From Phycisphaerae bacterium (GTDB taxonomy: Bacteria; Planctomycetota; Phycisphaerae; SM23-33), in assembly GCA_046541415.1 (NCBI GenBank), contig JBKHDI010000013.1, positions 1,064 to 65,063 of the forward strand: a stretch of DNA of 64,000 nucleotides. Reading direction: 5' to 3'. The translations under genes were made by a program, and so were the position numbers. Position 1 is the stretch's first letter; every line of letters begins with the position of its first letter. Below the pieces are notes generated by a model, which was given only the letters and a program-made list of their open reading frames with translations, had not been told where the DNA came from and searched no databases. Shown here piece by piece: positions 1,606 to 56,843 of this stretch.

Positions 1606-1611
1606 CAGCCG

Positions 1612-2265: not shown

Positions 2266-2278
2266 GAAGGAAACGGAT

Positions 2279-2689: not shown

Positions 2690-2699
2690 GCCCGAACTG

Positions 2700-3377: not shown

Positions 3378-3399
3378 CCCGATTCTGGAACCATATGAA

Positions 3400-4983: not shown

Positions 4984-4998
4984 GTCAGGAGGTCGAGG

Positions 4999-7203: not shown

Positions 7204-7214
7204 AAGGCCCGGCC

Positions 7215-8831
7215 ATGATCGTGCATACCAACAAAGAACAATCCGCCAAATGCCCCGTGCAGATCGATAGCGACCCGGCAGAGTCTGCCGCCCCGGCCGC
7301 TGCGCCTGGGGCCGGTGAAGGCATTGCCGGTCTGGCCCCATCGGCCCGGTTCGTCAAGCGGTTCGACATCGCCTTCGCCCGGTCGCACCAGGTGCTCGGC
7401 CTGGCTGGGTCCGACGGGCCGCTGCAACTGGCGATGGCCGATCCGGACGATCAGCAGACCCGCGACGTTGTCCGCCGCTGGATGGGGCGGGCCCTGCGTG
7501 TCCGACGCGTCGAGGCCGGTCAGATCCAGGCGGCGATCAACCACGCTTACGGCCAGCAGGCCGGGGCCGCCCAGGAGTTCGTCGAGCAGCTCGATCGCGA
7601 AACCGTCCTGCAGGACATCGAGAAACTCGACACCCGCGAAGATCTGCTCAACGTCGCCGACCGTGCACCGGTGATCAAGCTGGTCAACCTCGTGCTCTTC
7701 GAGGCCGTCCGCCAGCAAGCCTCGGACATCCACGTCCAGCCGTACGAAGATCGCCTGGTCATCCGCATGCGGATCGACGGCGTCCTGTTCGATACCTTCG
7801 ACCTGCCCGCCGGCGTCCAGGCTGAACTGGTCAGCCGCATCAAGGTCATGAGCCGGATGAACATCGCCGAGAAACGCCTGCCCCAGGACGGGCGGGCCAG
7901 CGTGCAGATCGGCGACCGGCAGATCGACCTGCGCGTCTCGACCGTCCCGGCCAGCCATGGCGAACGCGTGGTTATCCGCCTGCTGGACAAATCCGTCCGC
8001 CTCTACACGCTGGACCAGTTGGGCATGGCCCCGGCGGCCTTGCGCCGCTTTGCCGACCTGATCGGCGTCGAGCACGGGCTGATCCTGGTCACCGGCCCGA
8101 CCGGCTCGGGCAAGACCACCACGCTCTATGCGGCCCTGGGGCAGATCAACTCGACCGAGCGGAACATCATCACGCTGGAAGACCCGATCGAGTACCAGCT
8201 TGACGGGATCAGCCAGATTCAGATCGCCGAGAAGAAGGGCATGACCTTCGCCAGCGGCCTGCGGTCGGTGCTCCGCCAGGACCCGGATATCGTGATGATC
8301 GGTGAGATCCGCGACCGCGAGACGGCGGTGATGGCGATTCAGTCTGCCCTGACCGGCCACCTGGTCTTCAGCACGCTGCACACCAACGACGCAGCCAGCG
8401 CAGTGACCCGCCTTCTGGACCTGGGCATTGAGCCGTACCTGGTCTCCAGTTCGCTGGTCGGCGTGCTGGCCCAGCGACTTGTCCGGCGCGTCTGCGGCGC
8501 CTGCAGCCGCCCGGTCAGGCCCAACAAGCTGCAGCTGCGCTCGCTGGGCGGCCAACTGGATGCCGCCGCGATGTCCGGCTTCCGTGTCGGGTCGGGCTGT
8601 CCGGCGTGTCGCCAGACCGGCTACCAGGGACGGGCGGGCGTGTTCGAACTGCTGCGTACCGACGAGGCCATCCGCCGGCTGATCCAGCAGCGCAGCAGCG
8701 CTGCCGAAATCCATTCCGCCGCCCTCGATGCCGGTATGCAGTCGCTGGCCGCCGACGCCCTGGGCAAGGCAACCCGCGGAATCACCAGCCTCGAAGAAGT
8801 CCACCGCATCTCCATGCAGGCCTGCACCTGA
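7215..8831 (+). CDS. gspE: Type II secretion ATPase GspE
   Basis: Walker A GPTGSGKTT. Asp box and His box (MIGEIRD...TGHLVFSTLHTND). C-terminal tetracysteine CGACSRP...CPACRQTG. Confidence 0.9.
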   Translation: MIVHTNKEQSAKCPVQIDSDPAESAAPAAAPGAGEGIAGLAPSARFVKRFDIAFARSHQVLGLAGSDGPLQLAMADPDDQQTRDVVRRWMGRALRVRRVEAGQIQAAINHAYGQQAGAAQEFVEQLDRETVLQDIEKLDTREDLLNVADRAPVIKLVNLVLFEAVRQQASDIHVQPYEDRLVIRMRIDGVLFDTFDLPAGVQAELVSRIKVMSRMNIAEKRLPQDGRASVQIGDRQIDLRVSTVPASHGERVVIRLLDKSVRLYTLDQLGMAPAALRRFADLIGVEHGLILVTGPTGSGKTTTLYAALGQINSTERNIITLEDPIEYQLDGISQIQIAEKKGMTFASGLRSVLRQDPDIVMIGEIRDRETAVMAIQSALTGHLVFSTLHTNDAASAVTRLLDLGIEPYLVSSSLVGVLAQRLVRRVCGACSRPVRPNKLQLRSLGGQLDAAAMSGFRVGSGCPACRQTGYQGRAGVFELLRTDEAIRRLIQQRSSAAEIHSAALDAGMQSLAADALGKATRGITSLEEVHRISMQACT

Positions 8832-10045
8832 TGCCCGTATTCACTTACACAGCCCGATCAGTCGGGGCCGGCCAGGCCCCTGAAATCCGCGGCACGATCA
8901 CGGCGGATTCACCCCGGTCTGCGCGCGATCAACTGCGTCGACGCGGCCTTTCGATCCGCCGGCTGGACCGCCAGTCCGCCGGACGGACCGGCTCGGCGGT
9001 CGGGCGGTATCTGACTCGCCGCCAGCGCGTCAAGGTCACAGGTCTGCTGCAGGAACTGGCCACGCTGCTCTCGGCGGGCATTCCGCTGCTGGAGGCGTTG
9101 GAGACGGCCTCCCGCCAGCACCGCGGGCGGTTCCGGCAAGGCCTCCTGCTGCTTCGCGACCACGTAGCGGCCGGCGGCTCGCTGGGACAGGCCCTGGCCG
9201 CCCAATCCGACCTGTTCGACCCGCTGTGCGTGAGCATCGTGGAAGTCGGGGAGAACGCCGGCACGCTGGATGTGTCTCTGACCCGGCTGGTCGAGTACCG
9301 CCGGACCGCGGCCGGGCTGAAGAACCGCGTCGCCTCGGCGCTGATGTACCCGATGATCGTCCTGGCTGCGGGGATCGGTGTGAGCCTGTTCCTGATGGCC
9401 TACGTCGTACCGAACCTGCTGGACAGCCTGGCTGCCAGCGGCAAGGACCTGCCGGCCGCGACGCGCATCGTCCGGGCATCCAGCGAGTTGATCCTCCATT
9501 GGTGGTGGCTGATGGCCCTGGCCGCCGGTGGGGCCTTGGCAGGGTTCGCCGCCCTGTTGCGCAGCGAGAAGGGGGGCAGGGCCTTCGACCGCGCCGTTTT
9601 GAGGATCCCGCTGCTGGGCGACCTGATCCGCAAACAATCGGTCGCCCGGATGTCGATGGTGCTGGCGGCGCTTCTCAAGAGCGGCCTGACCTTCGTCCAC
9701 GCCATCCGCATCGTTCGCCCGACGATCCGCAACCGGGTGATCCGCGACGCGCTGGTCAGCTGCGAGCAGGCGGTCGGGGCCGGACAGGATATCTCAGCCG
9801 CCCTGGAGCAGACCGAAGCTTTCGATCCGCTGGTGGTGCAGATCTTCGCCGTCGGTCAGGCGTCGGGCCACCTCGAGAAGATGCTCGAAAACCTCGCCGC
9901 CGACTACGAAACACAGGTCGAGCTGACCTCGCAGCGCCTGACGACGCTGCTGGAGCCGTTGATGATGATTCTCCTTGCGATCGTGGTGGGTTTCATCGCG
10001 TTCGCGACCATGCTACCCATACTGGAGGCTGGAAATGTTCTGTAA
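8831..10045 (+). CDS. gspF: Type II secretion inner-membrane platform protein GspF
   Basis: ATG at 8831 overlaps the gspE stop (ATGA). Two GspF-type cytoplasmic domains with three TM segments. C-terminal ...LPILEAGN. Confidence 0.85.
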   Translation: MPVFTYTARSVGAGQAPEIRGTITADSPRSARDQLRRRGLSIRRLDRQSAGRTGSAVGRYLTRRQRVKVTGLLQELATLLSAGIPLLEALETASRQHRGRFRQGLLLLRDHVAAGGSLGQALAAQSDLFDPLCVSIVEVGENAGTLDVSLTRLVEYRRTAAGLKNRVASALMYPMIVLAAGIGVSLFLMAYVVPNLLDSLAASGKDLPAATRIVRASSELILHWWWLMALAAGGALAGFAALLRSEKGGRAFDRAVLRIPLLGDLIRKQSVARMSMVLAALLKSGLTFVHAIRIVRPTIRNRVIRDALVSCEQAVGAGQDISAALEQTEAFDPLVVQIFAVGQASGHLEKMLENLAADYETQVELTSQRLTTLLEPLMMILLAIVVGFIAFATMLPILEAGNVL

Positions 10046-10454
10046 CACCAACCGCGGGACCCGCAGGCGACTTGCCGCCGCGGGCTTTACGTTCATCGAA
10101 GTGATGGTCGTCGTAGTGATCATCGGCATGCTCGCCGGCGCGGTTACGCTGAAGGTCCGCGACCACATGCAGACCGCGCGGGTCAACCGGGCCCGGGCCG
10201 ACATCCGCGTGATCGTCGAGGCCGTCGAAGCCTACAGCCTCAACCATGCCGGGGCCTACCCCACCAGCAGCGCGGGGCTGGAGGATGTGCAGGTCGACGT
10301 CGGCAAGGACCCGTGGGGCCAGCCCTACCAGTACAACCGGCCCGGGGCCAACGGCGAGCAGTTCGAGGTCTTCAGCCTCGGTGCCGACGGCCAGCCGGGC
10401 GGCGACGATGAAGACGCGGACATCTACTCCTGGCAACTCAAGGACGACCAGTAA
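10035..10454 (+). CDS. gspG: Major pseudopilin GspG
   Basis: Prepilin leader plus cleavage/methylation motif AAGFTFIEVMVVVVIIGMLAG. Conserved GspG core ...DPWGQPYQY. Confidence 0.8.
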   Translation: MFCNTNRGTRRRLAAAGFTFIEVMVVVVIIGMLAGAVTLKVRDHMQTARVNRARADIRVIVEAVEAYSLNHAGAYPTSSAGLEDVQVDVGKDPWGQPYQYNRPGANGEQFEVFSLGADGQPGGDDEDADIYSWQLKDDQ

Positions 10455-10456
10455 AC

Positions 10457-10990
10457 ATGCGACGCGGGTTTACCTTGATCGAGGTGATGGCCGTGGTGAT
10501 GGTCCTGGCCGTGCTGGCCGGGGCGGCCGCCTGGACGATGACCGAACAGCTGCGCAGCCGTCGGAGCCTGACGGCGATCGAGCAACTGACGGGGGCCGAC
10601 CGCACCGCGCGCCTCGCTGCCCGGTCCAACGGCGGATCGACGCGCCTGGAGATCGACCTCGATGCCGGCCTGTCCGTGCGGTACGACCAGCCGGAAGGGG
10701 CCCTGGCCGCCCGACGCGCCCATCCGATCCAGCTGCCCGACGGCACGGAGATGCGCCGGGTCTGGCTGCATCTGCCGTCGGGCAAAGTAGAAGTCCGACA
10801 CGGCCGGGTGAGCATCCCATACTCGACCGAGGGCAGCAGCCCGACCTATGCGATCGAACTGGCCCGGGCGGACCAAGCCCAGTGGCTGGTCGTGGCGGGC
10901 CTGACCGGACAAACCTTCCTCCAGCAGGAGACCCACCATGTCGAGGCGCTCTTTACGCTTCTCGCCGCGGGCCGGACTGACCCTGCTTGA
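10457..10990 (+). CDS. Minor pseudopilin (GspH-like)
   Basis: MRRGFTLIEVMAVVMVLAVLAGAA prepilin-type N-terminus. Position after gspG. Confidence 0.5.
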   Translation: MRRGFTLIEVMAVVMVLAVLAGAAAWTMTEQLRSRRSLTAIEQLTGADRTARLAARSNGGSTRLEIDLDAGLSVRYDQPEGALAARRAHPIQLPDGTEMRRVWLHLPSGKVEVRHGRVSIPYSTEGSSPTYAIELARADQAQWLVVAGLTGQTFLQQETHHVEALFTLLAAGRTDPA

Positions 10991-11381
10991 GGTCATCGCC
11001 GGTATCGCGATCCTCTCGACGATCCTCGTCTCGGCCGTGGTCTCGCGGTCGCGCCACGCCCGCCAATTGGCGATGTCCGAGCGGGTCGAGGTGGCCCTGG
11101 CGGCGGCCGATGAACTGATCGCCGACTGGTGGACCGATTCGGCGGGCTTGCCCGTGGGTCGCAGCGGACAGGTCCAGGCCGTCGAGAACATGATCTGGCA
11201 GGTCGCCGAAGTGCCGAACCTGCAGGCTCAACAGCTCGGCTGTCGGGTCGTGCGCGTCCAACTACTGCAGGAGGGCAGCATTGGCGGGATCGAAGATGGA
11301 CAGGTTCTGGCCGAGGTGGAACTCATGCTCCCTGCCGAGCGGCCCGAGCCGGAACAGCCCCAGCCGGAGCGGACGCCATGA
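10938..11381 (+). CDS. Minor pseudopilin (GspI-like)
   Basis: GLTLLEVIAGIAILSTIL prepilin-type N-terminus. Small size. Overlaps neighbours as in gsp operons. Confidence 0.45.
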   Translation: MSRRSLRFSPRAGLTLLEVIAGIAILSTILVSAVVSRSRHARQLAMSERVEVALAAADELIADWWTDSAGLPVGRSGQVQAVENMIWQVAEVPNLQAQQLGCRVVRVQLLQEGSIGGIEDGQVLAEVELMLPAERPEPEQPQPERTP

Positions 11382-44213: not shown

Positions 44214-45170
44214 ATGCCCAAGCGACAGGACAAGCACAAGCGCAAACAGGGCTGGATCGGCTGGATGCAGTACATCGGCCTGCGGCTGTTCACTGCGCTG
44301 GTCCAGTCGTTCCCGATCTCCTGGAACTACGTGACCTGTCGGGTCATCGGCGACCTGATGTTCTTCCTGGACCACCGCCACCGCGACCGGGCCGAGCGAC
44401 ACATCCAGCTGAGCTTTCCCGACTGGCCGAAGGAGAAGGTCTCCGCCACGGCCCGAGAGTCGATGCGATCGATGGTCTACCTGGGCCTGGAAGTGCTCTA
44501 CACGCCGCGCCTGATCACGCCGCGCCTCTGGCGGAAGCACATCATCCTCGGCGAAAACATGCACGAGTGCGTCCGCCTGCTGATCGAGCGCAAGAAGGGC
44601 CTGCTCCTGCTGACCGGCCACTTCGGCAACTGGGAGGTCCTGGGCTACCTGCTGGGCACCCTGGGCCTGCCGACCGTCTCGGTTGCCCGTCGCCTGGACA
44701 ACCCGCACATCGACGAATTCGTCCTCGGCGTCCGCGAGAAGACGGGCCAGCGGATCCTGGACAAAAAGGGAGCAGCCAAAGAAATGCACGGCCTGCTGAC
44801 CGACAACGAGGCGATCGGATTCATCGCCGATCAGGACGCCGGACGGCGCGGGATGTTCGTGGATTTCTTCGGCCGCAAGGCCAGCGCCTATAAGACCATC
44901 GCCCTGCTGGCCATCCGCTACGAGATCCCCGTCGTCTGCGGCTGCGCCATCCGACAGGGGGCGAAGTACGAGTTCGAGATCGGGGCCGGGCGCATCATCT
45001 ACCCGCATGAATGGGCCGACGCCGACGATCCGGTCCGCTGGATAACCCAGGCCTATACCTCCGCCCTTGAGGGGATGATCCGCCACCAGCCGGGCCAGTA
45101 CCTCTGGGTTCACCGCCGCTGGAAACACCGACCCAAGGGCGAAGAGCAACCCAAGGACGGCATCGCCTGA
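44214..45170 (+). CDS. LpxL/HtrB-family lipid A (lauroyl/myristoyl) acyltransferase-like protein
   Basis: LTGHFGNWEVLGYLL block (HX4D-like acyltransferase region) and ...GFIADQDAG.... ~318 aa. Confidence 0.6.
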   Translation: MPKRQDKHKRKQGWIGWMQYIGLRLFTALVQSFPISWNYVTCRVIGDLMFFLDHRHRDRAERHIQLSFPDWPKEKVSATARESMRSMVYLGLEVLYTPRLITPRLWRKHIILGENMHECVRLLIERKKGLLLLTGHFGNWEVLGYLLGTLGLPTVSVARRLDNPHIDEFVLGVREKTGQRILDKKGAAKEMHGLLTDNEAIGFIADQDAGRRGMFVDFFGRKASAYKTIALLAIRYEIPVVCGCAIRQGAKYEFEIGAGRIIYPHEWADADDPVRWITQAYTSALEGMIRHQPGQYLWVHRRWKHRPKGEEQPKDGIA

Positions 45171-45252
45171 GGCGGGGGCAAACTGGCTTGGCATCGTCGA
45201 CGGTGGCAGAACCTCCCCGCCCCCGCAACTACCTGGAATGAACCGGCCCAGG

Positions 45253-46140
45253 TCAGGACAAGTCCGTTTGCTGGCGCGATGCAAAAGTCTCCTGTAAGCG
45301 CGACCACAACGATCGGACCTGGTCGGCCGCGGGTGCCGTCCCGAATTCGACGATGCTCAGCCCGGCGCGCTGCGCGGCGGTGACGGCAGGGTCGTAGTCG
45401 ATCCGGGCCAGGACCGGCAGGTTTCGGTCGGTGGCCGATGTCGTGATCTCATCGGCGATCTGTGGGTTGATGTCGGCCTTGTTGATGCAGACGGCCGCGG
45501 GGATCGAAAAGTGCTTGGCCAATTCGGCCACGCGCTGCATGTCGTGCAGGCCGCTGCGTGTCGGCTCGGTGACAATCAGAACCAGATCGGCGGCGGCGAT
45601 CGAGGCGATCACCGGACAGCCGGTCCCGGGCGCCCCGTCGACCAGCAGCCAGTCGGCCTGTCGGGCCTGGGCCAGTTCGATCGCCTGGGTCTTGACCGTA
45701 TGGACCAGCTTGCCGGAGTTGTCGGCCCCGGGCGTAAGGGCGGCATGAACCATCGGCCCCAAGCGTGTCTGGGAGAGCATCCATCGTCCGTTGACCGAAT
45801 CGAACATCTCGATCGCCCCGGCCGGGCAGGCCCAGGCGCACAGGCCGCAGCCCTCGCAGGCCAGCGGATCGATCTGGTGGGGCCGGTCGTTAATCGCATC
45901 GAACCGGCAGAGTTCGGCGCAGCGCCCGCAATCGGTGCAGCGGTCCGGATCGATCCGGGCGAGCTGCGAGCCGAAGAAGTCTTCCCGGCGTTGGACTTGC
46001 GGATCCAGCAGCAGGTGCAGGTCGGCGGCATCGACGTCGCAGTCGGCCAGGACGCAGCTTCCGGCCAACGCTGCCAGCGACGCGGTGACAGACGTCTTGC
46101 CCGTCCCGCCCTTACCGCTGATGATCACCAGATGCTTCAT
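45253..46140 (-). CDS. MinD/CooC-superfamily P-loop ATPase with 2x[4Fe-4S] ferredoxin insert
   Basis: Deviant Walker A SGKGGTGKTS. CxxCxxCxxxC motifs (CTDCGRCAELCRF, CEGCGLCAWACPAG). Confidence 0.7.
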   Translation of the reverse strand: MKHLVIISGKGGTGKTSVTASLAALAGSCVLADCDVDAADLHLLLDPQVQRREDFFGSQLARIDPDRCTDCGRCAELCRFDAINDRPHQIDPLACEGCGLCAWACPAGAIEMFDSVNGRWMLSQTRLGPMVHAALTPGADNSGKLVHTVKTQAIELAQARQADWLLVDGAPGTGCPVIASIAAADLVLIVTEPTRSGLHDMQRVAELAKHFSIPAAVCINKADINPQIADEITTSATDRNLPVLARIDYDPAVTAAQRAGLSIVEFGTAPAADQVRSLWSRLQETFASRQQTDLS

Positions 46141-47009
46141 ACTTCGCTCTTGCTGTTGGAGGCCGAAAGCAGGATTCGATCGGCCAGGTGTTGGAAGATC
46201 TCAGCCATCCCGTCGATCTGTTCGAACAGCAGCTGTCCGCGCGAGCCGACTTCGGCGGCTTCTCTGCTCAGGGGGATCTCCGCGAGGATCTCCAACCCTT
46301 CCTGCCGGCAGTAGCGGAGGACGGAATCGTCCCCGTCGGCGCGGTTGACGACCACGGCAGCCGGGACGCTCCTGGCCCGGACCATTTCCACCGCGAGTGT
46401 CAGATCGTGCAGGCTGAAGGGCGTCGGTTCGGCGACCAGGACAACCATATCGACCCCGTAGAGGGTCTCGACCGCCGGGCAGGAGGTCCCGGGTGGGGCA
46501 TCGAGAATGACCACCTCGGCATCGACAGGCTCGCGGCGGACGGCGCGAATCACCGGCGGGGCCATCGCCTGGCCGATATCCAGCAGCCCGTCGAGAAAGT
46601 GAATCGTCCCGGCCTGGCCTCTGCGGATGCGACCGATCGGCTGGGACTGCTCCCGGATCGCCCCTGTAGGGCAGACATAGCTGCAGGCTCCGCAACTGTG
46701 GCAGAGCTCGGGGAAGGTCATCACCGACGATTCCAGCGGTACGATCGCGCTGAAGCGACAGATCTTCCCGCAGAGGCCACACTGGTTGCAGCGGGCCGGG
46801 TCGACCGACGGGACCTCCCGGTAGACGGGTCGCTGCGAGGTCAACTCCGGGCGCAGGTACAGCGCGCCATTGGGCTCCTCGACGTCGCAGTCCAGGTAGG
46901 CCGCGCCAACACCGGCGGCCGAGACGGCGGCGGCGAGATTCACCGCCACCGTCGTCTTGCCGGTGCCCCCCTTGCCGCTGGCGATGGCAATGCGGCGCGG
47001 ATCAGTCAT
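46137..47009 (-). CDS. MinD/CooC-superfamily P-loop ATPase with ferredoxin insert (paralog)
   Basis: SGKGGTGKTTVAVNLA. CNQCGLCGKICRF and CHSCGACSYVCPTG. Overlaps the neighbour by 4 bp. Confidence 0.7.
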   Translation of the reverse strand: MTDPRRIAIASGKGGTGKTTVAVNLAAAVSAAGVGAAYLDCDVEEPNGALYLRPELTSQRPVYREVPSVDPARCNQCGLCGKICRFSAIVPLESSVMTFPELCHSCGACSYVCPTGAIREQSQPIGRIRRGQAGTIHFLDGLLDIGQAMAPPVIRAVRREPVDAEVVILDAPPGTSCPAVETLYGVDMVVLVAEPTPFSLHDLTLAVEMVRARSVPAAVVVNRADGDDSVLRYCRQEGLEILAEIPLSREAAEVGSRGQLLFEQIDGMAEIFQHLADRILLSASNSKSEV

Positions 47010-47295
47010 CCTGTCCAGCGCCCTCGATCTGGTCTATCCGATCACAGAGCCGCTGGAGTGTCTCTTCGATCATTGCCAGCCGATCGGCCGGTTTCGCCGA
47101 CGGGGCCGGCGCGATCTGATTATCCAGATCGCGCCATCGCCTCCGCCGCCGCCCTCCACCTCTACGTCCCCGGCCGAATCCTCTCGGCGGTGCGTCGCTG
47201 TAGCAGCCCGGCGTGTCATAGCCGGCGCAATAGCCCAGGCGGCGTCCGGTCATGGGGCCTTCTTGATTGGGTCCTGTCTGATCTCCGTATGGCAT
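47002..47295 (-). CDS. DUF5320-family protein
   Basis: MPYGDQTGPNQEGPMTGRRLGYCAGY...RGGGRRRRR N-terminus typical of DUF5320 (from memory). C-terminal helix. Confidence 0.5.
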   Translation of the reverse strand: MPYGDQTGPNQEGPMTGRRLGYCAGYDTPGCYSDAPPRGFGRGRRGGGRRRRRWRDLDNQIAPAPSAKPADRLAMIEETLQRLCDRIDQIEGAGQDD

Positions 47296-47328
47296 GGTGT
47301 TTCTCCCGCCGGCTCAGGGCCGGCATGG

Positions 47329-47739
47329 TCAGGGGTTTCGGCTTTGGCTTGGCCCGTGGCGCCGTCTACAGCGTCTGCCCAGGCCCGAGTTGCGGACCCG
47401 TTGGCCGCAGCAACCGGGCATGGCGAATGCGGGCTGGTCCAGGCGATTGGTGGCCAGGGCCTCCAGGACCGCATCGACCGGGCCGCAGACGTGCGGATGT
47501 ACCGCCAGCCCCGCGGCAAGCAGGGCTGCTTCCAACTCCCGCGACAGCGCCCCGCAGACGACCATTTCGACCTGCAGGTCCGCCAACTGGCGGGCACGTC
47601 GACCGGGCCCGGCGGGGGCCAGTGTGGCCTGGCGCTTTCGGGAAATCCCGACCCCGGACAATTCGGCCAGCAGACACTCGCCCGCCTCGTCGAGTACCGG
47701 CGAGATGCGATCTTCACGAACTGGAAGGGCCACGAGCAT
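47329..47739 (-). CDS. NifX/NafY/NifB-C-like (Nitro_FeMo-Co) cofactor-binding domain protein
   Basis: MLVALPVREDRISPVLDEAGECLLAEL... fold pattern of the dinitrogenase FeMo-cofactor-binding family. Small size. Confidence 0.5.
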   Translation of the reverse strand: MLVALPVREDRISPVLDEAGECLLAELSGVGISRKRQATLAPAGPGRRARQLADLQVEMVVCGALSRELEAALLAAGLAVHPHVCGPVDAVLEALATNRLDQPAFAMPGCCGQRVRNSGLGRRCRRRHGPSQSRNP

Positions 47740-47754
47740 AACACCGGATTCTCC

Positions 47755-47771
47755 TGTAACCGCCGTGCCAG
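47755..47771 (-). promoter_or_regulatory. Candidate sigma-54 (-24/-12) promoter for the minus-strand operon
   Basis: Minus-strand TGGCAC-GGCGG-TTACA. Perfect -24 element, -12 is TTACA versus TTGCA. ~20 nt upstream of the ATG at 47739. Confidence 0.4.
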
Positions 47772-47860
47772 AAGGTGCCGGCCGAGCGGAAGAAAGATAT
47801 AAACATAGTCATGAAAAAAGGTTGTGCTCCAAATTGTTCGCACTGTTCTTGCAAGCGGAC

Positions 47861-47909
47861 TATTGCACAATGCAAACAAAACGCAGAGTATATATTGCAC
47901 AATGCAATG
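47861..47909. promoter_or_regulatory. Two copies of a 15-bp element TATTGCACAATGCAA (inverted repeat TTGCA-N3-TGCAA), 32 bp apart
   Basis: Exact copies at 47861-47875 and 47893-47907, in the divergent region between the sigma-54 activator gene and the NifX-like operon. Confidence 0.5.
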
Positions 47910-47930
47910 AATGGGCGATACAATACGGGT

Positions 47931-49304
<1,374 letters not shown>

Positions 49305-49423
49305 TGCACGATCGGGCGGCCCCAAGGGCTGGCTCTCCGCCCGGCTCGATTTGTCGCAATAAGCTGTAAGTGAATATGGGATATATTGTTGTGCGAAGTA
49401 TTCCGGTCCGGCTCTCTCCCGGC

Positions 49424-49439
49424 TGGTACGCTCCTTGCA
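49424..49439 (+). promoter_or_regulatory. Candidate sigma-54 promoter upstream of the NifX-like/Mrp-NifX operon
   Basis: TGGTAC-GCTCC-TTGCA. GG and GC are 12 bp apart as in the TGGCAC-N5-TTGCW consensus. ~38 bp upstream of the ATG at 49477. Confidence 0.55.
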
Positions 49440-49476
49440 TTCCTGTTCGGCCGAGTTAGACCAACAAGGAGTCGCC

Positions 49477-49839
49477 ATGAAAGTCGCCATTACCGTTGCA
49501 GATTCCGGACCTGAGGCGCAGGTGGACCCGCGTTTCGGCCGGGCCCGCTGGTTCCGCATCGTCGACACCGAGACCGGGCAGGTCGAGACGGTCGACAACA
49601 CCCCGAACCTCCAGGCCGCCCAGGGTGCAGGCATACAGGCGGCACGTCGGTGTGTCGAGCTGGGCATCGAGGCGGTCATTACCGGCCAGGTGGGGCCCAA
49701 GGCCTTTGCCGTCCTCCAGGGCCAGGGCGTTGCGGTCCATACCGGGGCTTCCGGGTTGGCCGATGAGGCTTTGGAGCGATTCACCCGAGGCCAACTGCCC
49801 GCCACCGGGGCCGCAACCGTCGAAGGCCACTGGTCCTGA
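49477..49839 (+). CDS. NifX/NafY-like (Nitro_FeMo-Co) cofactor-binding domain protein
   Basis: MKVAITVADSGPEAQVDPRFGRARWFRIVDTETG...IEAVITGQVGPKAF hallmark of the family. Confidence 0.65.
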   Translation: MKVAITVADSGPEAQVDPRFGRARWFRIVDTETGQVETVDNTPNLQAAQGAGIQAARRCVELGIEAVITGQVGPKAFAVLQGQGVAVHTGASGLADEALERFTRGQLPATGAATVEGHWS

Positions 49840-49877
49840 ACTGCCCCAGTACCCGAACCCCAGGAGAAGCTCCGCCA

Positions 49878-51089
49878 ATGTCGCAGTCGTGTCATTCGCA
49901 GTCCGATCCGGACCGCAAGCAGCAGTTGGACCTGTATCGCCAGACCCGCATGGAACGGATCGCCCGCAAGCTTCTGGTGCTTTCCGGCAAGGGCGGGGTG
50001 GGCAAGAGCACCGTGGCGGCCGGGCTGGCCAGGGCCCTGGCCGCCGAGCAGTCGGTGGGCCTGTTGGACATCGACCTGCACGGGCCGAGCGTATCGCGGT
50101 TGACGGGCCTGCAGGACCGGCGCCTGGAGGTCGGGCCGGATGGGACCATCGAGCCGATCCAGCTGGCCTCGGGTCTGAAGGTCGTTTCGATCGGGCTGCT
50201 GCTGGAATCGGCCGATGCGCCGGTGATCTGGCGCGGGCCGATGAAGTACGGCCTGATCGAGCAGTTCCTGGCCAATGTCAACTGGGGCCCGTTGGATGTG
50301 CTCATCGTCGATGCCCCCCCGGGAACCGGCGATGAGCCCCTGGCGATCGCCGAACTGGTCGGCGAAGGGGCCCAGGCCGTCATCGTCACCACGCCGCAGG
50401 CCGTGGCGATCGACGATGTCCGGCGGTCCATCGCCTTCTGCCGCCAGCTGGGCCTGCCGATCGCCGGAATCATCGAGAACATGGCAGGGCTGTCCTGCCC
50501 GCACTGCGACCAGGTGATCTCCCTGTTCGGCCAGGGCGGCGGGGCCGACCTGGCCGAGGCGACCGGACAGCGTCTGCTCGGTTCGATCCGCATCGATCCC
50601 GGTGCGGTCGCCGCCGGAGATGCCGGCCTGCCGCTGCCCGGCGACGGGGCAGGGGCGGACCTGGCCGGGATCGTCGAGGCACTCAAGCAGTCCGCCCCGG
50701 CCGTCGGGGCTTGTCAGAAGAAGAACCCAATCGGAAAGGTCCTTGAAACCGTGAGAATAGCCATCCCCACCGCCGAAGGCAGGCTCTGCATGCACTTCGG
50801 CCACTGCGAAACCTTCACCGTACTGGAAGTCGACAAGGAGACCGGATTGATCGCTTCGTCCGAGTCGCTGACGCCCCCGCCGCACGAGCCGGGCGTGCTG
50901 CCGCGTTGGCTGGCCGGGCAGAACGTCCAACTGGTCATCGCCGGCGGCATGGGCCAGCGGGCCCAGGGGCTGTTCGCCGCCGAGGGCATCGACGTGGTCG
51001 TCGGCGCCCCGGCCGAGACGCCCGAGGATATCGTCCTGGCCTGGTGCAACGGATCTCTGGAAGCCGGCGAGAATGTCTGCGACCACTGA
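49878..51089 (+). CDS. Mrp/NBP35 (ApbC)-type Fe-S cluster carrier ATPase fused to a C-terminal NifX-like (Nitro_FeMo-Co) domain
   Basis: Deviant Walker A LSGKGGVGKST. CPHC Fe-S ligand motif. C-terminal IAIPTAEGRLCMHFGHCETFTVLEVD...VIAGGMGQRA NifX-like block. Confidence 0.75.
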   Translation: MSQSCHSQSDPDRKQQLDLYRQTRMERIARKLLVLSGKGGVGKSTVAAGLARALAAEQSVGLLDIDLHGPSVSRLTGLQDRRLEVGPDGTIEPIQLASGLKVVSIGLLLESADAPVIWRGPMKYGLIEQFLANVNWGPLDVLIVDAPPGTGDEPLAIAELVGEGAQAVIVTTPQAVAIDDVRRSIAFCRQLGLPIAGIIENMAGLSCPHCDQVISLFGQGGGADLAEATGQRLLGSIRIDPGAVAAGDAGLPLPGDGAGADLAGIVEALKQSAPAVGACQKKNPIGKVLETVRIAIPTAEGRLCMHFGHCETFTVLEVDKETGLIASSESLTPPPHEPGVLPRWLAGQNVQLVIAGGMGQRAQGLFAAEGIDVVVGAPAETPEDIVLAWCNGSLEAGENVCDH

Positions 51090-51540
51090 GCCCAGCCTGC
51101 AGTTGCACAGTCGTACGCGACAGGATCGCCACGGCGACTGTTTCGCCGCCCGACCCGTCGATCAAGGGGGGCTGGGGCTGGAGTTCCAGCTCGAGCCCGA
51201 TGGCTCGGTCCACACGCGGCTGGATTGCATCGAGCGATGGCAGGGTTACGACGGGATGATGCACGGGGGCATCCTTTCGGCCCTGGCCGACGCGGTGATG
51301 ACCAACTGCCTCTTCGCCGCGGGAGTCGAGGCGGTCACCGGCGACCTGCGCGTCCGCTTCCGTCAGCCCGTTCAATTGGCCGGGGCGGTCGAGGCGATCG
51401 GTCGCATCGTACGGGTGGCCGATCCACTGTATGTCATGCAGGCCCGGTTGGTCCAGGCAGGGCAGGTCAAGGTCAGCGCCGAGGCCAAGTTCATGCGGAC
51501 CGGCCCGAGCCCAGCGACCAGACCCAGCGGCCGAGGGTAA
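51073..51540 (+). CDS. Hotdog-fold thioesterase (PaaI/YbgC-like)
   Basis: ...YDGMMHGGILSALADAVMTNC... central helix motif. Overlaps upstream gene by 17 bp and the convergent znuB by 50 bp. Confidence 0.5.
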   Translation: MSATTEPSLQLHSRTRQDRHGDCFAARPVDQGGLGLEFQLEPDGSVHTRLDCIERWQGYDGMMHGGILSALADAVMTNCLFAAGVEAVTGDLRVRFRQPVQLAGAVEAIGRIVRVADPLYVMQARLVQAGQVKVSAEAKFMRTGPSPATRPSGRG

Positions 51541-52348
51541 CGGCGAAGTAGACTCCCGCTGCCAGGACGACGATGAACGCCCCGGGCGGCAGGTCGGGCT
51601 CGTACGACAGGGCCAAACCCGCGACGGTGAACCCCGCAGCCAGCAGCGTCGCCAGCAGCATCATCTGCCACAATCTGCGGGCAAACTGGCCGGCGACGGC
51701 GACCGGGATCGTCAGCAGGGCGATTACCAGCAGGATGCCCACCACCGTCGTCAGCAGCACCACGGTCACCGCGGTGATCATCAGAAGCAGCATGTAGACC
51801 GCGTCGACCCGAACGCCGCGGGTGCGGGCGAACTGCTCGTCGCAACAGACAGCCAGGAACTGCTTGTAGAACCCCAGCGCCACGCCCAGGACGCCCACGT
51901 CCAGGGCCAGCAGCAGCCAGAGGTGCTCCTGCGAGACCAGCAGCACGTTGCCGAACAGGTACGTCATCAGGTCCTGGGTATACTCGGGCGTGCGGGTCAG
52001 GAATATCAGCCCGGTCGACATCCCCAGGGCCCACATGGCGCTGATGACGGTATCTTCGCGCTGCTGGAGTCGCAGCGAGACCAGGCCGATAATCCCCGCC
52101 GCCGCCAGGGCGGCCACCAGCGCCCCGTGCAGGGGCGACAGCCAGCTCCACCCCATCACCGAGCGGAGGTAGATCGCTCCGCCAATGCCCCCCAGCACGC
52201 AATGGGCAATGCCTCCTGCGATGTACGTGATCCGCCGGACGACAACGTAGCTGCCGACCACCCCGCAGGCCACGGAGGCCAGCAGACCCGCCAGGAGTGT
52301 CTGTTGCATCAGCCCGCTGCGGGCCAACTGCTGGAAATACTCGGTCAT
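51491..52348 (-). CDS. znuB: Zn/Mn ABC transporter permease
   Basis: Eight TM helices. ZnuB/MntB-type. Confidence 0.8.
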   Translation of the reverse strand: MTEYFQQLARSGLMQQTLLAGLLASVACGVVGSYVVVRRITYIAGGIAHCVLGGIGGAIYLRSVMGWSWLSPLHGALVAALAAAGIIGLVSLRLQQREDTVISAMWALGMSTGLIFLTRTPEYTQDLMTYLFGNVLLVSQEHLWLLLALDVGVLGVALGFYKQFLAVCCDEQFARTRGVRVDAVYMLLLMITAVTVVLLTTVVGILLVIALLTIPVAVAGQFARRLWQMMLLATLLAAGFTVAGLALSYEPDLPPGAFIVVLAAGVYFAVTLGRWVWSLGSGRSA

Positions 52349-53109
52349 TCGGCGTGTCCTCCGGCGCAGTTGTGGTCATGGCGGACCAGGCGGATGTCCT
52401 GCTGGTAGAGCTCGGCGATGTTCGCCCCTGTAAGCTCAGCCGTCGGGTGCACCGAAACCGACCTGTTGACGCAGACCACCGTGTCGACAAACTGCGTGAC
52501 GAAGCCCACGTCGTGGCTGACCAGCACGACGGTCAGCTTCTCGTTCAGGCGGCTGAGCAGTTGGAAGAAGTCCTGCTCGGCGGCGGCATCGAGGTTGCTG
52601 GTCGGCTCGTCCAGCAGGAGCAGTTCGGGCTCGCCGGCCAGGCAGCGGGCGATCAGGACGCGCTGTCTCTGGCCGCCGGAGAGGGAGGCGAATGTCCCGC
52701 CTGCCTGGTCGGCCAGGCCCACCTGCTCCAGGGCGGCCCGGGCGCGACGACGGTCGCTGCCGCGGTAGGGGCCCAGCAGCCTGGTCCGACCCAGGCAGCC
52801 CATCAGCACCACGTCCAGGACGCTGACCGGGAACTTCGGGTCCAACTGAATATGCTGCGGGACGTAGCCGAGGCGCTTGCGGACCTGTTGCGGGCTGCTG
52901 CCCAGAACCAGGCAGCGCCCGGCGGTGGGGCGCAGAAGCCCCAGCAGCAGCTTCAGCAGCGTCGTCTTTCCGCCTCCGTTGGGGCCGACCATCATCGCGA
53001 ACTGGCCGGGCTGGATGGCGAAGCTTGCCCCGTCGAAGATCTTCTCCCCGTTGTAGGCGAAATCCAGGTCGGTCACTTCGATGATCGCTGAGGCGTCAGT
53101 CATCTTCAC
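52345..53109 (-). CDS. znuC: Zn/Mn ABC transporter ATP-binding protein
   Basis: Walker A GPNGGGKTT. ABC signature LSGGQRQRVLIARCL. Walker B LLLLDEP. Confidence 0.85.
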   Translation of the reverse strand: MKMTDASAIIEVTDLDFAYNGEKIFDGASFAIQPGQFAMMVGPNGGGKTTLLKLLLGLLRPTAGRCLVLGSSPQQVRKRLGYVPQHIQLDPKFPVSVLDVVLMGCLGRTRLLGPYRGSDRRRARAALEQVGLADQAGGTFASLSGGQRQRVLIARCLAGEPELLLLDEPTSNLDAAAEQDFFQLLSRLNEKLTVVLVSHDVGFVTQFVDTVVCVNRSVSVHPTAELTGANIAELYQQDIRLVRHDHNCAGGHAE

Positions 53110-54082
53110 CTCGGCCGGCGAGGTTGGTTTCGAGCTTCTTGGCCAGGTCGGTCATCATCTCGATGTAGTCGCCCGAGAGGGGGTCCAGTTCGACAACAAC
53201 GCCGTCGATGGCCTGGGCAATGGTCGTCGCGGCCGGGGCGGAGAACTGCTTCTGGACGAAGATCACCTGCACGTCATCGGCCCGGGCCTGGGCGATCAGT
53301 TCGTTGACCCGCCGCTGCGAAGGGCTGCGTCCGCCGATTTCGATGGCCTTCTGCTTCAGGTCGTAGGCCTGGGCGAAGTGGCCGAACGCAGCGTGATAAG
53401 TGTAGAACGTCCGGCCTGTCAGGGAGGCCAGTTGTTCGGCGATCCGCTGGTCCAGTTCGGTCAGTTGCTGCTGGAGGGCCTTGAGGTTGGCCTGGAAAAC
53501 GTCGGCGAACTCGGGGGCCAGTTCGGACAGTTCCGCCGCGATGGCCGGGGCGATTGTGTCTCGCATGGCCCGCGGGCTCAGCCAGAGATGCGGATCGCCG
53601 TCGCCGTGGTCATGTCCGTGATGGTCGTGGTGGTCATGTCCCTGATGGTCTTGCTGGTCGTGGCCATCGTGGTCGTCATGTTCATCATGCCCGTCATGCC
53701 CGTCGTGATCGGCCTGGGCCAGTCCTGCTGGAAGTCCCCCGGCCGGTCTGAGAATATGCAGCGATTCGACGGCCCCGCCGAGTTTGTCGGCCAGGACCTG
53801 TTCGAAGGGCGTTTCCAGCAGCACGGCCAGGTGGGCCGATTCGACCCAGACCAGCTGTTTCGTTGTCGGGCTGTAGCTGTGGGGGCTTGCCTGGGCCGGA
53901 AGGATCGATCGGACCTCGACGTGGTCGCCGCCGATGCGGCGGACGATGTCGGCGACGGGGGGGATTCCGGCGGCGACTTTCACGGGCTGGCCGGACTGGC
54001 GATGGTTGTCGCGGCTGCAGCCGGCCGGGGCCAGGGCTGTCATCGCAGCCAGCAGAGGGATCAGGCAGATGCGGGACTTCAT
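53096..54082 (-). CDS. znuA: Periplasmic zinc-binding protein ZnuA with His/Asp-rich loop
   Basis: Start MKSRICL (ATG ending 54082) with lipobox/signal. HDGHDGHDEHDDHDGHDQQDHQGHDHHDHHGHDHGDGDPH flexible loop. The longer track ORF to 54562 is rejected. Confidence 0.8.
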   Translation of the reverse strand: MKSRICLIPLLAAMTALAPAGCSRDNHRQSGQPVKVAAGIPPVADIVRRIGGDHVEVRSILPAQASPHSYSPTTKQLVWVESAHLAVLLETPFEQVLADKLGGAVESLHILRPAGGLPAGLAQADHDGHDGHDEHDDHDGHDQQDHQGHDHHDHHGHDHGDGDPHLWLSPRAMRDTIAPAIAAELSELAPEFADVFQANLKALQQQLTELDQRIAEQLASLTGRTFYTYHAAFGHFAQAYDLKQKAIEIGGRSPSQRRVNELIAQARADDVQVIFVQKQFSAPAATTIAQAIDGVVVELDPLSGDYIEMMTDLAKKLETNLAGRGEDD

Positions 54083-54348
54083 GCTTCGACTCCTTCGTGC
54101 TGGCAGATCAGGTGCAGTTCGTGGCAGTCGCGACACTCCTCCAGCTGGTGGTTGCGGGCGAACTGTTCCCAGTGTTCCTTCTGCCGGGGCGAGAGGATGC
54201 CCGTGCCCCGGCAGAGGGGGCAGGTGCTGTCCAGGGCGGCCAGGATGGCGTCTCGGATGAACTCCGAGCGGTTGGGCAGCCCGGCCAGCTGGGCCAGCAG
54301 CGACGGATCGACCTTCAGACTGATGACGGATTGTTTGTTGGCGGCCAT
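54079..54348 (-). CDS. Ribbon-helix-helix (CopG/NikR-like) DNA-binding protein with C-terminal Cys/His-rich domain
   Basis: N-terminus SVISLKVDPSLLAQLAGLPNRSEFIRDAILAAL (beta-strand, helix, helix of RHH). C-terminus CPLCRGTG...CRDCHELHLICQHEG. 4-bp ATGA overlap with the znuA start. Confidence 0.5.
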   Translation of the reverse strand: MAANKQSVISLKVDPSLLAQLAGLPNRSEFIRDAILAALDSTCPLCRGTGILSPRQKEHWEQFARNHQLEECRDCHELHLICQHEGVEA

Positions 54349-54539: not shown

Positions 54540-56843
54540 TTGAAACAGATCAGCAAAGACATCCTCGGCCTGTTGTGTGACGTAGGCGAACTGTCGGCCC
54601 GCCTGGCCGGCAGCGCCGACCTGCAGGCGTTCCTGCAGCAGATCGTCGAGATGGTCGCCGGCCATCTGCACTCCGACGTCTGCTCGATCTACCTTTACGA
54701 GGAAGATACCGAGCAGCTGGTGCTCCGTGCGACCAAAGGACTGAACTCCGAGGGGATCAACAACGTTCGCCTGTCGCTGGAAGAGGGGCTGGTGGGCATG
54801 TCGCTGCGACAACTGAGGCCCATCCGCGAATTGTGTGCCAGCGCCAACCCGAACTTCAAGGCCATCGAGGGGATCAACGAAGAGCCTTACGAGTCGTACC
54901 TGGCCGTGCCGATCCTCAAGGGCGTCGAGCGGATCGGCGTGCTGGTCGTCCAGCGCGAGCAGCGCAACAGCTTTTCCGAGCAGGACATCATGGCCCTTCG
55001 CGCCACGGCCTCGCAGTTGGCCAGCGCCATCGAGACCGCCCGCGTGCTGATGGAGATCCATTCGGGCAAGAGTCAGCACCCGCCTGCCCCGGTCGGTCGA
55101 CCCAGCACGCCCTCGCTGATCCAGGGTCGCGTAGCCTCCAAGGGCTTCGCCCACGCGCCGGTCTCCATTCACGATCCAACGCGGGGCCAGCGCAGCCTGG
55201 TCACCCGTCGCTTCGCCGGGACCTACAGCCTCGACCAACTCCGCGACGCGCTGCAGCAGACAGCCAGCCAGCTGCAGGCCCTGCAGAAGCGTGTCGGCCA
55301 GCGCCTGCCGGAGATGGCCTCGCTGATCTTCGACGCCCACCAGATGATGCTCAAGGACCACGCCTTCGTCGGCGAGATGATCACCCTGGTCGAGGAGGGG
55401 ACCAATCCGCCCGAGGCCGTCCAGCAGGTCGCCCGCAAATACGCCGACCTGCTGATGGAATCGTCCCACACCTACATCCGCGAAAAGGCCCAGGACGTTG
55501 AGGACCTCGCCCGGCGAATCCTGGCCAACCTCACCGGGGCCGAAACAGGCTTCGACCTGCAGTTCGGAGATCAGCCGCACATCGTCGTCGCCCGCGAGCT
55601 GTTCCCCTCGGACGTACTGAAACTCGTCACCGCCAACATCGCCGGCGTGGTGCTGGTCTGCGGCGGGGTGACCAGCCACGTCTCGATCCTCGCCCGGTCC
55701 CTGCAGATGCCCCTGGTCATCGCCCAGGACAACAGCCTGCTGAGCCTGCAGACCGGAACCGAGATGCTCCTGGACGCCGAGATCGGCAATATCTACATCG
55801 AGCCCGGCGAGGAGATCATCCGTACCTTCGCCGACCGCAACCGTGCCCGGAAGGTGGTCGGCGGCGCGGAGAAGATCTCGGCCGAGCAGACCGAAACTGC
55901 CGACGGCCACCACGTCAAGCTGCTGGCCAACATCAACCTGCTGACCGACGTGGACCTGGCTGTCCAGGTCGGCTCAGCCGGTATCGGCCTGTACCGCAGC
56001 GAGTTCCCCTTCCTGATCCGCACCGCCTTGCCCAGCGAAGAGGAGCAGATGGTCATCTACCGCCGCCTGATCGACGCGATCGGCGACCGCGAACTGACCT
56101 TCCGCACGCTGGACGTCGGCGGCGACAAGCTGCTGAGCTACTTCGACGAAGACCTCGAAGAGAACCCCGCCCTGGGCCTGCGGGGGATCCGCTTCTCGCT
56201 GCGACACAACGACGTGTTCTGCCAGCAGATCCGCGCCCTGCTGCGGGCGGCGGCCGAGTTCAAATCCCTCAAAATCATGTTCCCGATGATCAGCTCGGTC
56301 GAGGAGTTCCATCAGGCCCGCCAGGTCGTCCGCCAGTGCATGAGCGAACTGCAGAACGAGAACCTGCCCTGCCATACAAGCCCCACGCTGGGGATCATGG
56401 TCGAGGTGCCCTCGGCCGTGACGATGATCGACGTGCTGGCCGAGGAGGTCGACTTCTTCTGCATCGGTACCAACGACCTGACGCAGTTCCTCCTGGCCGT
56501 CGACCGGACCAACGAAAAGGTCGCCGCACACTTCCAGCCGCACCACCCGGCCGTGCTGCGGGCGGTCAAACGCGTCGCCGACGCCGCCAATGCCGCCGAC
56601 AAGGAAGTCTCGATCTGCGGGGAGATGGCCAACGAGGTCCGCTTCCTGCCCCTGCTGATCGGCCTGGGGATCCGCTCGATCTCCGTCGACCCGCAGTATC
56701 TGCCTGCCCTGGCAGCCTGGGTGGGCAAACTGACGCTGGACGGCTGTCGTCGCCAGGCTGAGTTGCTGCTGGCCGAGACCACCCTGGCCGGCGTCTCGTC
56801 CAGGCTGGGCGGCTTCGAAAACCGCAAGTCGGCCGCGGAATGA
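54540..56843 (+). CDS. ptsP: Phosphoenolpyruvate-protein phosphotransferase EI-Ntr (GAF domain plus enzyme I)
   Basis: N-terminal GAF domain. EI phosphohistidine and PEP-utilising domains (...GGVTSHVSILARSLQMP...). TTG start in the track. Confidence 0.85.
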   Translation: MKQISKDILGLLCDVGELSARLAGSADLQAFLQQIVEMVAGHLHSDVCSIYLYEEDTEQLVLRATKGLNSEGINNVRLSLEEGLVGMSLRQLRPIRELCASANPNFKAIEGINEEPYESYLAVPILKGVERIGVLVVQREQRNSFSEQDIMALRATASQLASAIETARVLMEIHSGKSQHPPAPVGRPSTPSLIQGRVASKGFAHAPVSIHDPTRGQRSLVTRRFAGTYSLDQLRDALQQTASQLQALQKRVGQRLPEMASLIFDAHQMMLKDHAFVGEMITLVEEGTNPPEAVQQVARKYADLLMESSHTYIREKAQDVEDLARRILANLTGAETGFDLQFGDQPHIVVARELFPSDVLKLVTANIAGVVLVCGGVTSHVSILARSLQMPLVIAQDNSLLSLQTGTEMLLDAEIGNIYIEPGEEIIRTFADRNRARKVVGGAEKISAEQTETADGHHVKLLANINLLTDVDLAVQVGSAGIGLYRSEFPFLIRTALPSEEEQMVIYRRLIDAIGDRELTFRTLDVGGDKLLSYFDEDLEENPALGLRGIRFSLRHNDVFCQQIRALLRAAAEFKSLKIMFPMISSVEEFHQARQVVRQCMSELQNENLPCHTSPTLGIMVEVPSAVTMIDVLAEEVDFFCIGTNDLTQFLLAVDRTNEKVAAHFQPHHPAVLRAVKRVADAANAADKEVSICGEMANEVRFLPLLIGLGIRSISVDPQYLPALAAWVGKLTLDGCRRQAELLLAETTLAGVSSRLGGFENRKSAAE

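Follow-up and report, generated by a model that had tools for sequence, protein, structure and literature searches.

The region at positions 45253 to 51540 of a 64-kb stretch of Phycisphaerae DNA (contig JBKHDI010000013.1; the whole stretch is hereafter the window) is very probably the Phycisphaerae orthologue of the orp (ORange Protein) cluster known from anaerobic bacteria, as judged from gene families, motifs, and gene order. The system is already named and partly characterized, and we describe a planctomycete copy of it, with no claim to a new system. A reading of the same DNA from its letters alone (the sequence-only reading) had taken these genes for co-localized families without an assigned function or identity; that claim did not survive, as the gene set matches the orp cluster. 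Gene content, motifs, promoters, palindromes, and co-conservation across phyla are established here.

Fievet et al. gave the orp cluster its name in 2011 and investigated it by experiment, as cited in PMC4641369, and later work followed (PMC3897727, PMC6345978, PMC8359166). In Desulfovibrio vulgaris Hildenborough, it comprises DVU2103–DVU2109 (PMC3897727, PMC8359166): the divergent operons orp5-orp4-orp3 and orp7-orp8-orp9 flank the gene for the sigma-54 activator OrpR (DVU2106). Both operons have sigma-54 promoters assisted by IHF, and orpR itself is transcribed by sigma-70. Among the products, the ATPases Orp3 and Orp4 are related and each contain a pair of [4Fe-4S] motifs, whereas Orp8 is the orange protein and Orp9 is MrpORP (PMC6345978). 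MrpORP passes Fe–S clusters to Orp3 and Orp4, and Orp3, Orp4, Orp5, Orp8, and Orp9 form one complex (PMC6345978). The orange protein (ORP) of Desulfovibrio holds a noncovalent S2MoS2CuS2MoS2 cluster.

Layout of the Cluster

The window has in common with the D. vulgaris locus a sigma-54 activator gene placed between two divergent sigma-54 operons, palindromic (here putative) activator sites ∼90–130 nucleotides (nt) upstream of each promoter, and a match to a sigma-70-type promoter ahead of the activator gene. Both loci encode two MinD-like ATPases with 2x[4Fe-4S] modules, an orange protein, and an Mrp-NifX fusion, and probably also a small Fe–S protein. The window differs in having an extra hotdog thioesterase gene, in the DUF5320 gene of its leftward operon, and in its host, a planctomycete and no sulfate reducer. 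The features are as follows (aa, amino acids; UAS, upstream activating sequence).

45253–46140 (−): Orp3-like MinD-type ATPase, 295 aa; Pfam CbiA/ParA and two Fer4 matches; inserted 2x[4Fe-4S] ferredoxin module
46137–47009 (−): Orp4-like MinD-type ATPase, 290 aa; Pfam ParA/CbiA and two Fer4 matches; paralogue of the Orp3-like gene
47002–47295 (−): DUF5320 protein, 97 aa; PF17253, E 1.4e-18
47329–47739 (−): small Cys-bearing NifX-like protein, here X, 136 aa; first gene of the leftward operon; PF02579 by family profile
47755–47770 (−): sigma-54 promoter match of the leftward operon, TGGCACggcggTTACA; TGGYAC-N5-TTRCW, 5′ end 31 nt before the ATG of X
47861–47907 (no strand): two identical 15-nt copies of TATTGCACAATGCAA, 32 nt apart, each holding TTGCA-N3-TGCAA; proposed UAS of the leftward promoter
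47896–47924 (+): weak sigma-70-like promoter match, TGCACA-17-TACAAT, a consensus match only, just before the activator gene
47931–49304 (+): OrpR-like sigma-54 activator, 457 aa; Pfam PAS, Sigma54_activat, and HTH_8
49297–49309 (no strand): third palindrome, TTGCATAATGCAC, overlapping the activator stop codon; proposed UAS of the rightward promoter, ∼120 nt upstream of it
49424–49439 (+): sigma-54 promoter match of the rightward operon, TGGTACgctccTTGCA; 3′ end 38 nt before ATG 49477
49477–49839 (+): orange protein (ORP/Orp8) homologue, 120 aa; single Nitro_FeMo-Co domain, PF02579, E 1.2e-23
49878–51089 (+): MrpORP (Orp9) homologue, 403 aa; Mrp/NBP35 P-loop (ParA/NUBPL) fused to Nitro_FeMo-Co; NF041136
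51073–51540 (+): hotdog-fold thioesterase, 155 aa; 4HBT, PF03061 and TIGR00369

Several genes overlap: DUF5320 and the start of the Orp4-like gene by 8 nt, the Orp4-like stop and the Orp3-like start by 4 nt, and the mrpORP stop and the hotdog start by 17 nt. Rfam and tRNA scans across the window gave no matches. A check of open reading frames (ORFs) found all eight where the sequence-only reading had placed them, and its anatomy of eight genes, with their domains and coordinates, was borne out by that check together with Pfam and NCBIfam scans. The metal-cluster theme it had drawn also held, in the Fer4 motifs, the Nitro_FeMo-Co domains, and MrpORP. Of the Nitro_FeMo-Co domains it had called, those of the 49477 ORF and of the ORF ending at 51089 matched directly, and that of the 47329 ORF is supported through its family profile. 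The proposed sigma-54 control of divergent operons was likewise sustained by two oriented promoter matches, the sole ones in the window.

Conservation Across Phyla

For comparison, we scanned one genome per species with an MrpORP alignment and profile-searched the ORFs around the matches, which gave 80 loci (numbered with the prefix L); gene counts in these loci are pushed downward by contig ends. The loci include Planctomycetota, Verrucomicrobiota, Lentisphaerota, Spirochaetota, Myxococcota, Synergistaceae, Armatimonadota, Actinomycetes, and many sulfate reducers and syntrophs. The gene set recurs as follows.

Both ATPases in the locus: 40/80
Both ATPases and ORP: 31/80
Both ATPases, ORP, and X: 21/80
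Both ATPases, ORP, X, and DUF5320: 14/80
Both ATPases, ORP, X, DUF5320, and activator: 8/80

Orp3-like homologues (44–61% identity) adjoin mrpORP in 45 of the 80 loci. The Orp4-like gene occurs in 40, always together with an Orp3-like gene, and DUF5320 in 21, typically directly upstream of both ATPases. The genes usually recur as one operon. Most often the locus starts with the activator and a sigma-54 promoter, followed by X, ORP, DUF5320, ATPase, ATPase, and MrpORP, and the order from X to MrpORP fits the numbering Dde_3197 to Dde_3202 of Desulfovibrio alaskensis G20. The neighborhood comparison that the sequence-only reading had called for thus found its families co-conserved with mrpORP across many phyla. 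Mrp-NifX fusions from Phycisphaerae, other Planctomycetes, and Lentisphaerae were tabulated in 2019 (Table S3, PMC6345978); the taxonomic setting is therefore not new.

The OrpR-Like Activator

The activator ORF opens at GTG 47775. Alignments with its homologues begin near residue 13 of the protein starting at ATG 47931, so we took this codon as the likely start. The protein has a PAS domain with the cysteines Cys56-x8-Cys65-x3-Cys69, an AAA+ domain with a GAFTDA loop, and a Fis-type helix-turn-helix (HTH), and it is 50–63% identical, over its full length, to activators adjoining orp genes in other loci. All 19 of the other orp-linked activators keep the C-x8-C-x3-C motif (19/19); two unlinked paralogues from these loci lack it.

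In D. vulgaris, redox sensing by OrpR through a [4Fe-4S] cluster in its PAS domain requires C52, C61, and C65 (PMC8359166); orp expression drops as the redox potential rises, and the OrpR regulon consists of the two orp operons only. The GAFTDA loop, an unusual form, is listed for DVU2106 by Kazakov et al. The window activator shares with OrpR (DVU2106; PMC8359166) the PAS, AAA+, and HTH_8 domains, the cysteine motif with identical spacing, GAFTDA, and the position of its gene beside orp genes. It differs in its proposed DNA site, and its redox sensing is a prediction by analogy with OrpR. The environmental gate put forward by the sequence-only reading stood in so far as the three PAS cysteines are kept; as a gate, it was already known in D. 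vulgaris as OrpR redox sensing.

The nearest fetched activator from Desulfovibrionaceae, that of a Pseudodesulfovibrio sp. (L074), is 53% identical to the window activator. Its locus (L074, 5975–8810) is a reduced cluster in which an OrpR-type activator, with its cysteines at exactly 52, 61, and 65, is accompanied by an X-like gene and by a single-domain Mrp that has four N-terminal cysteines; neither the ATPases nor ORP are encoded within 8 kb. A delta-proteobacterial locus (L024, 779–5548) has two adjacent OrpR-type activators, both with the PAS cysteine motif, and each adjoins its own sigma-54 promoter and an X or ORP gene.

Promoters and Palindromes

Exactly two sites in the 64 kb have the pattern TGGYAC-N5-TTRCW, where 0.07 would be expected, and a count of two was never reached in 100 shuffles (0/100). 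Both sites head an operon and are correctly oriented. The looser pattern TGG-N8-TTGCW was found at chance level (3 sites against 3.06 expected), and we therefore placed weight only on the stricter pattern and on position.

With at most one mismatch, TTGCA-N3-TGCAA is found three times in the window, each time within one of the two orp promoter regions. These palindromes lie 100–130 nt upstream of the promoters, the leftward pair at ∼100 and ∼130 nt; the OrpR sites of D. vulgaris lie at −88 and −131. Paired palindromes also precede sigma-54 promoters in Planctomycetia, Myxococcales, delta-proteobacterial, and Treponema loci (L049, L005, L024, and L061). On this pattern and placement, we propose the palindromes as activator-binding sites. 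The sigma-70-like match agrees with its consensus at 9 of 12 positions, overlaps the second palindrome, and is the sole one in 45000–52000, where 0.7 would be expected by chance; as a sequence match, it is consistent with the sigma-70 transcription of orpR in D. vulgaris.

The ATPases, MrpORP, and the Orange Protein

The two paralogous ATPases, with two ferredoxin motifs each, match the description of Orp3 and Orp4. The Orp3-like protein has GKGGTGKT at residue 9 and CxxCxxCxxxC at 68 and 95; in the Orp4-like protein, the Walker A motif GKGGTGKT stands at residue 12 and the cysteine motifs at 74 and 103. Their C-terminal stretches are strongly amphipathic, ranking 4th of 285 and 11th of 280 windows.

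The MrpORP homologue scored 456.2 bits on NCBIfam NF041136 (equivalog cutoff 450) over residues 25–393, and a 100% identical National Center for Biotechnology Information protein from a Phycisphaerae metagenome-assembled genome is already named MrpORP. It has a deviant Walker A motif, GKGGVGKS, at 37, CPHC at 207–210, CMHFGHCE at 304–311, and a terminal CDH at 401–403, in positions that are invariant or nearly so across 21 relatives. CXXC, CxHFGHCE, and CDH are the motifs singled out for MrpORP (PMC6345978). Among solved structures, the P-loop part is closest to eukaryotic Cfd1. With the Desulfovibrio protein (Orp9/Dde_3202; PMC6345978), the homologue thus has in common Walker A, CPHC, the C-terminal Nitro_FeMo-Co domain, CDH, and the published closeness to Cfd1.

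Of the solved structures, the orange protein of Megalodesulfovibrio (Desulfovibrio) gigas best matches the ORP homologue (2WFB; E 9.6e-20); it too is a 120-aa single-domain protein, and the two can be aligned end to end. The Mo–Cu–S cluster is a feature of Desulfovibrio ORP that the window protein may share by analogy.

Close relatives of D. gigas ORP also occur in other layouts (L081, 6942–10519; L084, 8001–10905), with ORP, two Fer4-ATPases, a second Nitro_FeMo-Co gene, and a Zn-ribbon protein. Neither locus has an adjacent PAS-type OrpR-like activator; L081 has a DUF134 protein upstream, and in L084, a response-regulator-type sigma-54 activator lies ∼2 kb downstream on the opposite strand. 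From these layouts, the ORP core therefore appears to be wired to differing regulators by lineage.

X and DUF5320

On its own, X reached 22.4 bits on PF02579, against a cutoff of 26.3, and had no matches in the Protein Data Bank. We therefore turned to its family, aligning X with 22 homologues from related loci. All 23 members matched PF02579 (23/23; best E 2.7e-10), and the family profile found the solved NifX-like folds 1RDU, 2YX6, 1T3V, 1O13, MTH1175, MJ0327, and ORP 2WFB. Given these matches, X is a real but divergent member of the NifX-like fold. Its signature consists of ISPVFD, LICGAIS, F-x-MPGC(C), and an Arg-rich cationic tail with 8 Arg/Lys and no acidic residue in 25 aa. In some relatives, the Gly/Arg tail is longer.

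In D. alaskensis G20, Dde_3197 is a small Fe–S protein related to Nitro_FeMo-Co proteins and reported to bind [2Fe-2S], Dde_3199 is uncharacterized, and Dde_3202 is MrpORP. X is probably the counterpart of Dde_3197/Orp5, the small [2Fe-2S] protein, as gene order and the descriptions of Dde_3197 suggest. Compared with the published descriptions, it resembles Orp5 in its size and cysteines, in its NifX-like homology, and in being encoded first in the ATPase operon. DUF5320 was also considered for the role of Orp5 and dropped: the relationship of Dde_3197 to Nitro_FeMo-Co proteins fits X.

The DUF5320 protein has a Cys-containing N terminus, an Arg/Gly-rich middle, and a helical C terminus. Both small leftward proteins contain Arg-rich tracts that are free of acidic residues (DUF5320, RGFGRGRRGGGRRRRRWR; X, GRRCRRRH) and that recall the cationic tail with which IssA binds anionic thioferrate. 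IssA (IPR003731) shares the small alpha/beta cofactor-binding domain, and its tail resembles these tracts; it differs in that its cationic tail is 70 residues long and rich in Gly and aromatic residues, whereas that of X is short and not aromatic-rich. In three other loci (L009, 5174–5791; L022, 509–1072; L065, 1356–1928), an X-type protein continues through a Gly/Arg-rich linker into a C-terminal four-cysteine zinc-ribbon-like module, CxCPxCG...H..GIPC...C..C. This fusion is absent from the window X.

The Hotdog Thioesterase

The hotdog gene occurs in 12 of the 80 loci; 10 of these 12 have it immediately downstream of mrp and on the strand of mrp, in some cases with an overlap. The loci that have it are mostly Planctomycetota and Lentisphaerota, of the Planctomycetes–Verrucomicrobia–Chlamydiae (PVC) group. 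Its best solved relative is human THEM4 (E 6e-6). It is the sole element of the cluster that could count as a variant.

Neighboring Genes

Elsewhere, the window encodes ExbBD, a type II secretion system (T2SS) set, ThiC, peptide deformylase, RNase III, a cardiolipin-synthase-like protein, GcvT, RNase R, beta-galactosidase, HAD hydrolases, an HD-domain protein, LpxL, ZnuABC, PtsP, a GH28 enzyme, and a rhomboid protein; a prolyl-tRNA synthetase upstream was recognized from its translation alone. The first 11 kb (1–11000) carry ExbB/ExbB/ExbD, then a TPR protein, and then a secretin, the T2SS-E ATPase, T2SS-F, and a G-type pseudopilin, a set unrelated to orp.

Beside the cluster, 51491–54348 (−) holds a ZnuABC-type metal uptake operon of an ABC-3 permease, an ABC ATPase, and a ZnuA with a long His/Asp-rich loop. 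Ahead of ZnuABC, 54079–54348 encodes an 89-aa ribbon-helix-helix protein with a Cys/His-rich C terminus, likely a metal-responsive repressor. The permease and hotdog genes are convergent, and their 3′ ends overlap by ∼50 nt; ZnuABC, like the other genes around the cluster, is not conserved beside orp elsewhere. We considered a functional link of the cluster to ZnuABC and LpxL and set it aside: LpxL was unmatched in the 80 loci, and the ZnuC-like matches were scattered generic ABC ATPases. Farther on, 54540–56843 (+) encodes a GAF-domain phosphoenolpyruvate-utilizing enzyme of the PtsP/EI-Ntr type. The nitrogen-related phosphotransferase system, of which PtsP is the first enzyme, often has functional ties to sigma-54 regulons.

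Discussion

For the planctomycete orp cluster, the Desulfovibrio work suggests the following mechanism. The activator would carry a redox-sensitive [4Fe-4S] cluster on Cys56, Cys65, and Cys69 of its PAS domain and would occupy the TTGCA-N3-TGCAA palindromes on either side of its own gene. Only at low redox potential would its AAA+ domain open sigma-54 RNA polymerase at the two divergent promoters (47770–47755, −; 49424–49439, +). The leftward operon would then supply X, DUF5320, and the two MinD-like 2x[4Fe-4S] ATPases, and the rightward operon would supply the orange protein, MrpORP, and the hotdog thioesterase. MrpORP would act as an ATP-dependent Fe–S carrier that loads clusters onto both ATPases, and the loaded ATPases would join the orange protein (with its Mo–Cu–S cluster in Desulfovibrio) and the small Fe–S protein in the ORP complex. 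We infer redox sensing, Fe–S transfer, and complex formation from their counterparts in Desulfovibrio.

Several points weigh against assigning the region to the orp cluster. Orthology to the D. vulgaris and G20 proteins is argued from a hidden Markov model cutoff exceeded by only 6 bits (that of MrpORP), one solved structure, motifs, and synteny. The identity of ORP to the D. gigas protein is 43% over 108 aa. The N-terminal four-cysteine cluster of the Desulfovibrio MrpORP proteins is missing, with Cys5 alone before Walker A; this motif already differs between two Desulfovibrio MrpORP proteins. The hotdog protein has no described Desulfovibrio counterpart, the D. vulgaris genes named in the orp papers being orp3–5 and orp7–9. 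At the DNA level, the window palindrome is unlike the 17-mer site of D. vulgaris, GGGCGYRTTTTGCGCCC. The leftward promoter has A instead of G at −13, and its −12 element is TTAC and not TTGC; we accepted it because TTGC promoters hold the same position in six orthologous loci (TGGCAC-N5-TTGCT, 27–30 nt before the X homologues of L013, L014, L049, L061, L067, and L079). The E. coli-type IHF consensus WATCARNNNNTTR was not found between palindromes and promoters at up to one mismatch, and the one site with two mismatches, on the right side, is at background frequency; these spacers are 57–62% AT, compared with 35% for the window.

Other readings of what the genes do were weighed against the same evidence. 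The three Nitro_FeMo-Co domains and the Fe–S carrier ATPase might form a self-contained line for cofactor trafficking or maturation, with carriers like NifX, NafY, or NifB serving a client enzyme encoded elsewhere in the genome, and MrpORP does also donate its cluster to aconitase in vitro (PMC6345978). We hold this to be very improbable. The physiological partners of the D. vulgaris carrier are Orp3 and Orp4 of the same cluster, in one complex with it (PMC6345978), and the narrow OrpR regulon of two orp operons likewise speaks against an outside client. Among the ∼50 Pfam-scanned ORFs of the window, we found no nitrogenase, NifEN, NifB, carbon monoxide dehydrogenase, or hydrogenase, and the sole radical-SAM match was ThiC. 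The absence of nifHDK, nifEN, and nifB from the window had been read correctly from sequence alone; the outside client of unknown identity assumed for the Mrp-NifX fusion was not upheld, and by analogy with D. vulgaris, its clients would be the Orp3/Orp4-type ATPases encoded beside it. Although NifX, NafY, and NifB-C have the same Nitro_FeMo-Co domain (IPR003731), the window has no nitrogenase context, and the solved structures nearest to the window proteins are those of ORP, MTH1175, and TM1290-type proteins. The sole Nif-labeled one is 1O13, a structural-genomics entry named “probable NifB protein,” and no NafY is among the listed relatives.

It also seems improbable that the cluster is a store or buffer of metal sulfides, in which NifX-like proteins would sequester anionic Fe–S or thiomolybdate/copper under sulfidic reducing conditions and the ATPases would drive loading and release. 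The Mo–Cu–S cluster of Desulfovibrio ORP fits such a role, as do IssA, a thioferrate storage protein of the same domain family that uses a cationic Gly/Arg-rich tail, and the Arg-rich tracts of X and DUF5320; moreover, Dde_3197–3199 of G20 swing strongly between copper-exposure conditions. However, X has a tail that is far shorter than the 70 residues of IssA and not rich in aromatic residues, the G20 homologue reportedly binds a simple [2Fe-2S] cluster, and a store leaves the need for MinD-type ATPases unexplained. Septum placement or cell division is the function proposed in the Desulfovibrio literature. On this view, amphipathic helices at their C termini would attach the two MinD-like ATPases to the membrane or pole, the ATPases would position the septum, and the metal clusters would serve as redox inputs. 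Inactivation of orpR in D. vulgaris causes morphological defects, MrpORP is polar, and both window ATPases end in strongly amphipathic stretches. We nevertheless consider a division or positioning device possible but on balance unlikely: the Desulfovibrio authors themselves term the role “still unclear,” and no division genes lie beside the cluster in the window. Many Planctomycetota divide unusually, without canonical division proteins, which we also count against it.

With the region taken as an orp cluster, the value as a discovery is small, since the cluster is named, its regulator and carrier are characterized, and Phycisphaerae fusions are tabulated. That the ORP system of the PVC group gained a THEM4/PaaI-like thioesterase as a working part of the complex is a doubtful proposition, suggested by gene position and domain matches. 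If it were true, the thioesterase would link the ORP system, which is widespread in anaerobes, to the chemistry of acyl thioesters, such as that of lipid or envelope metabolism, and would offer a new experimental handle on the function of the ORP complex. Across many phyla, the gene set, the cysteine motif of the activator, and the spacing from promoter to start codon hold; outside Desulfovibrio, the putative activator sites resemble TTGCA-N3/4-TGCAA, and in PVC bacteria, a thioesterase gene is added to the cluster. These comparative by-products could help settle what the ORP complex does.

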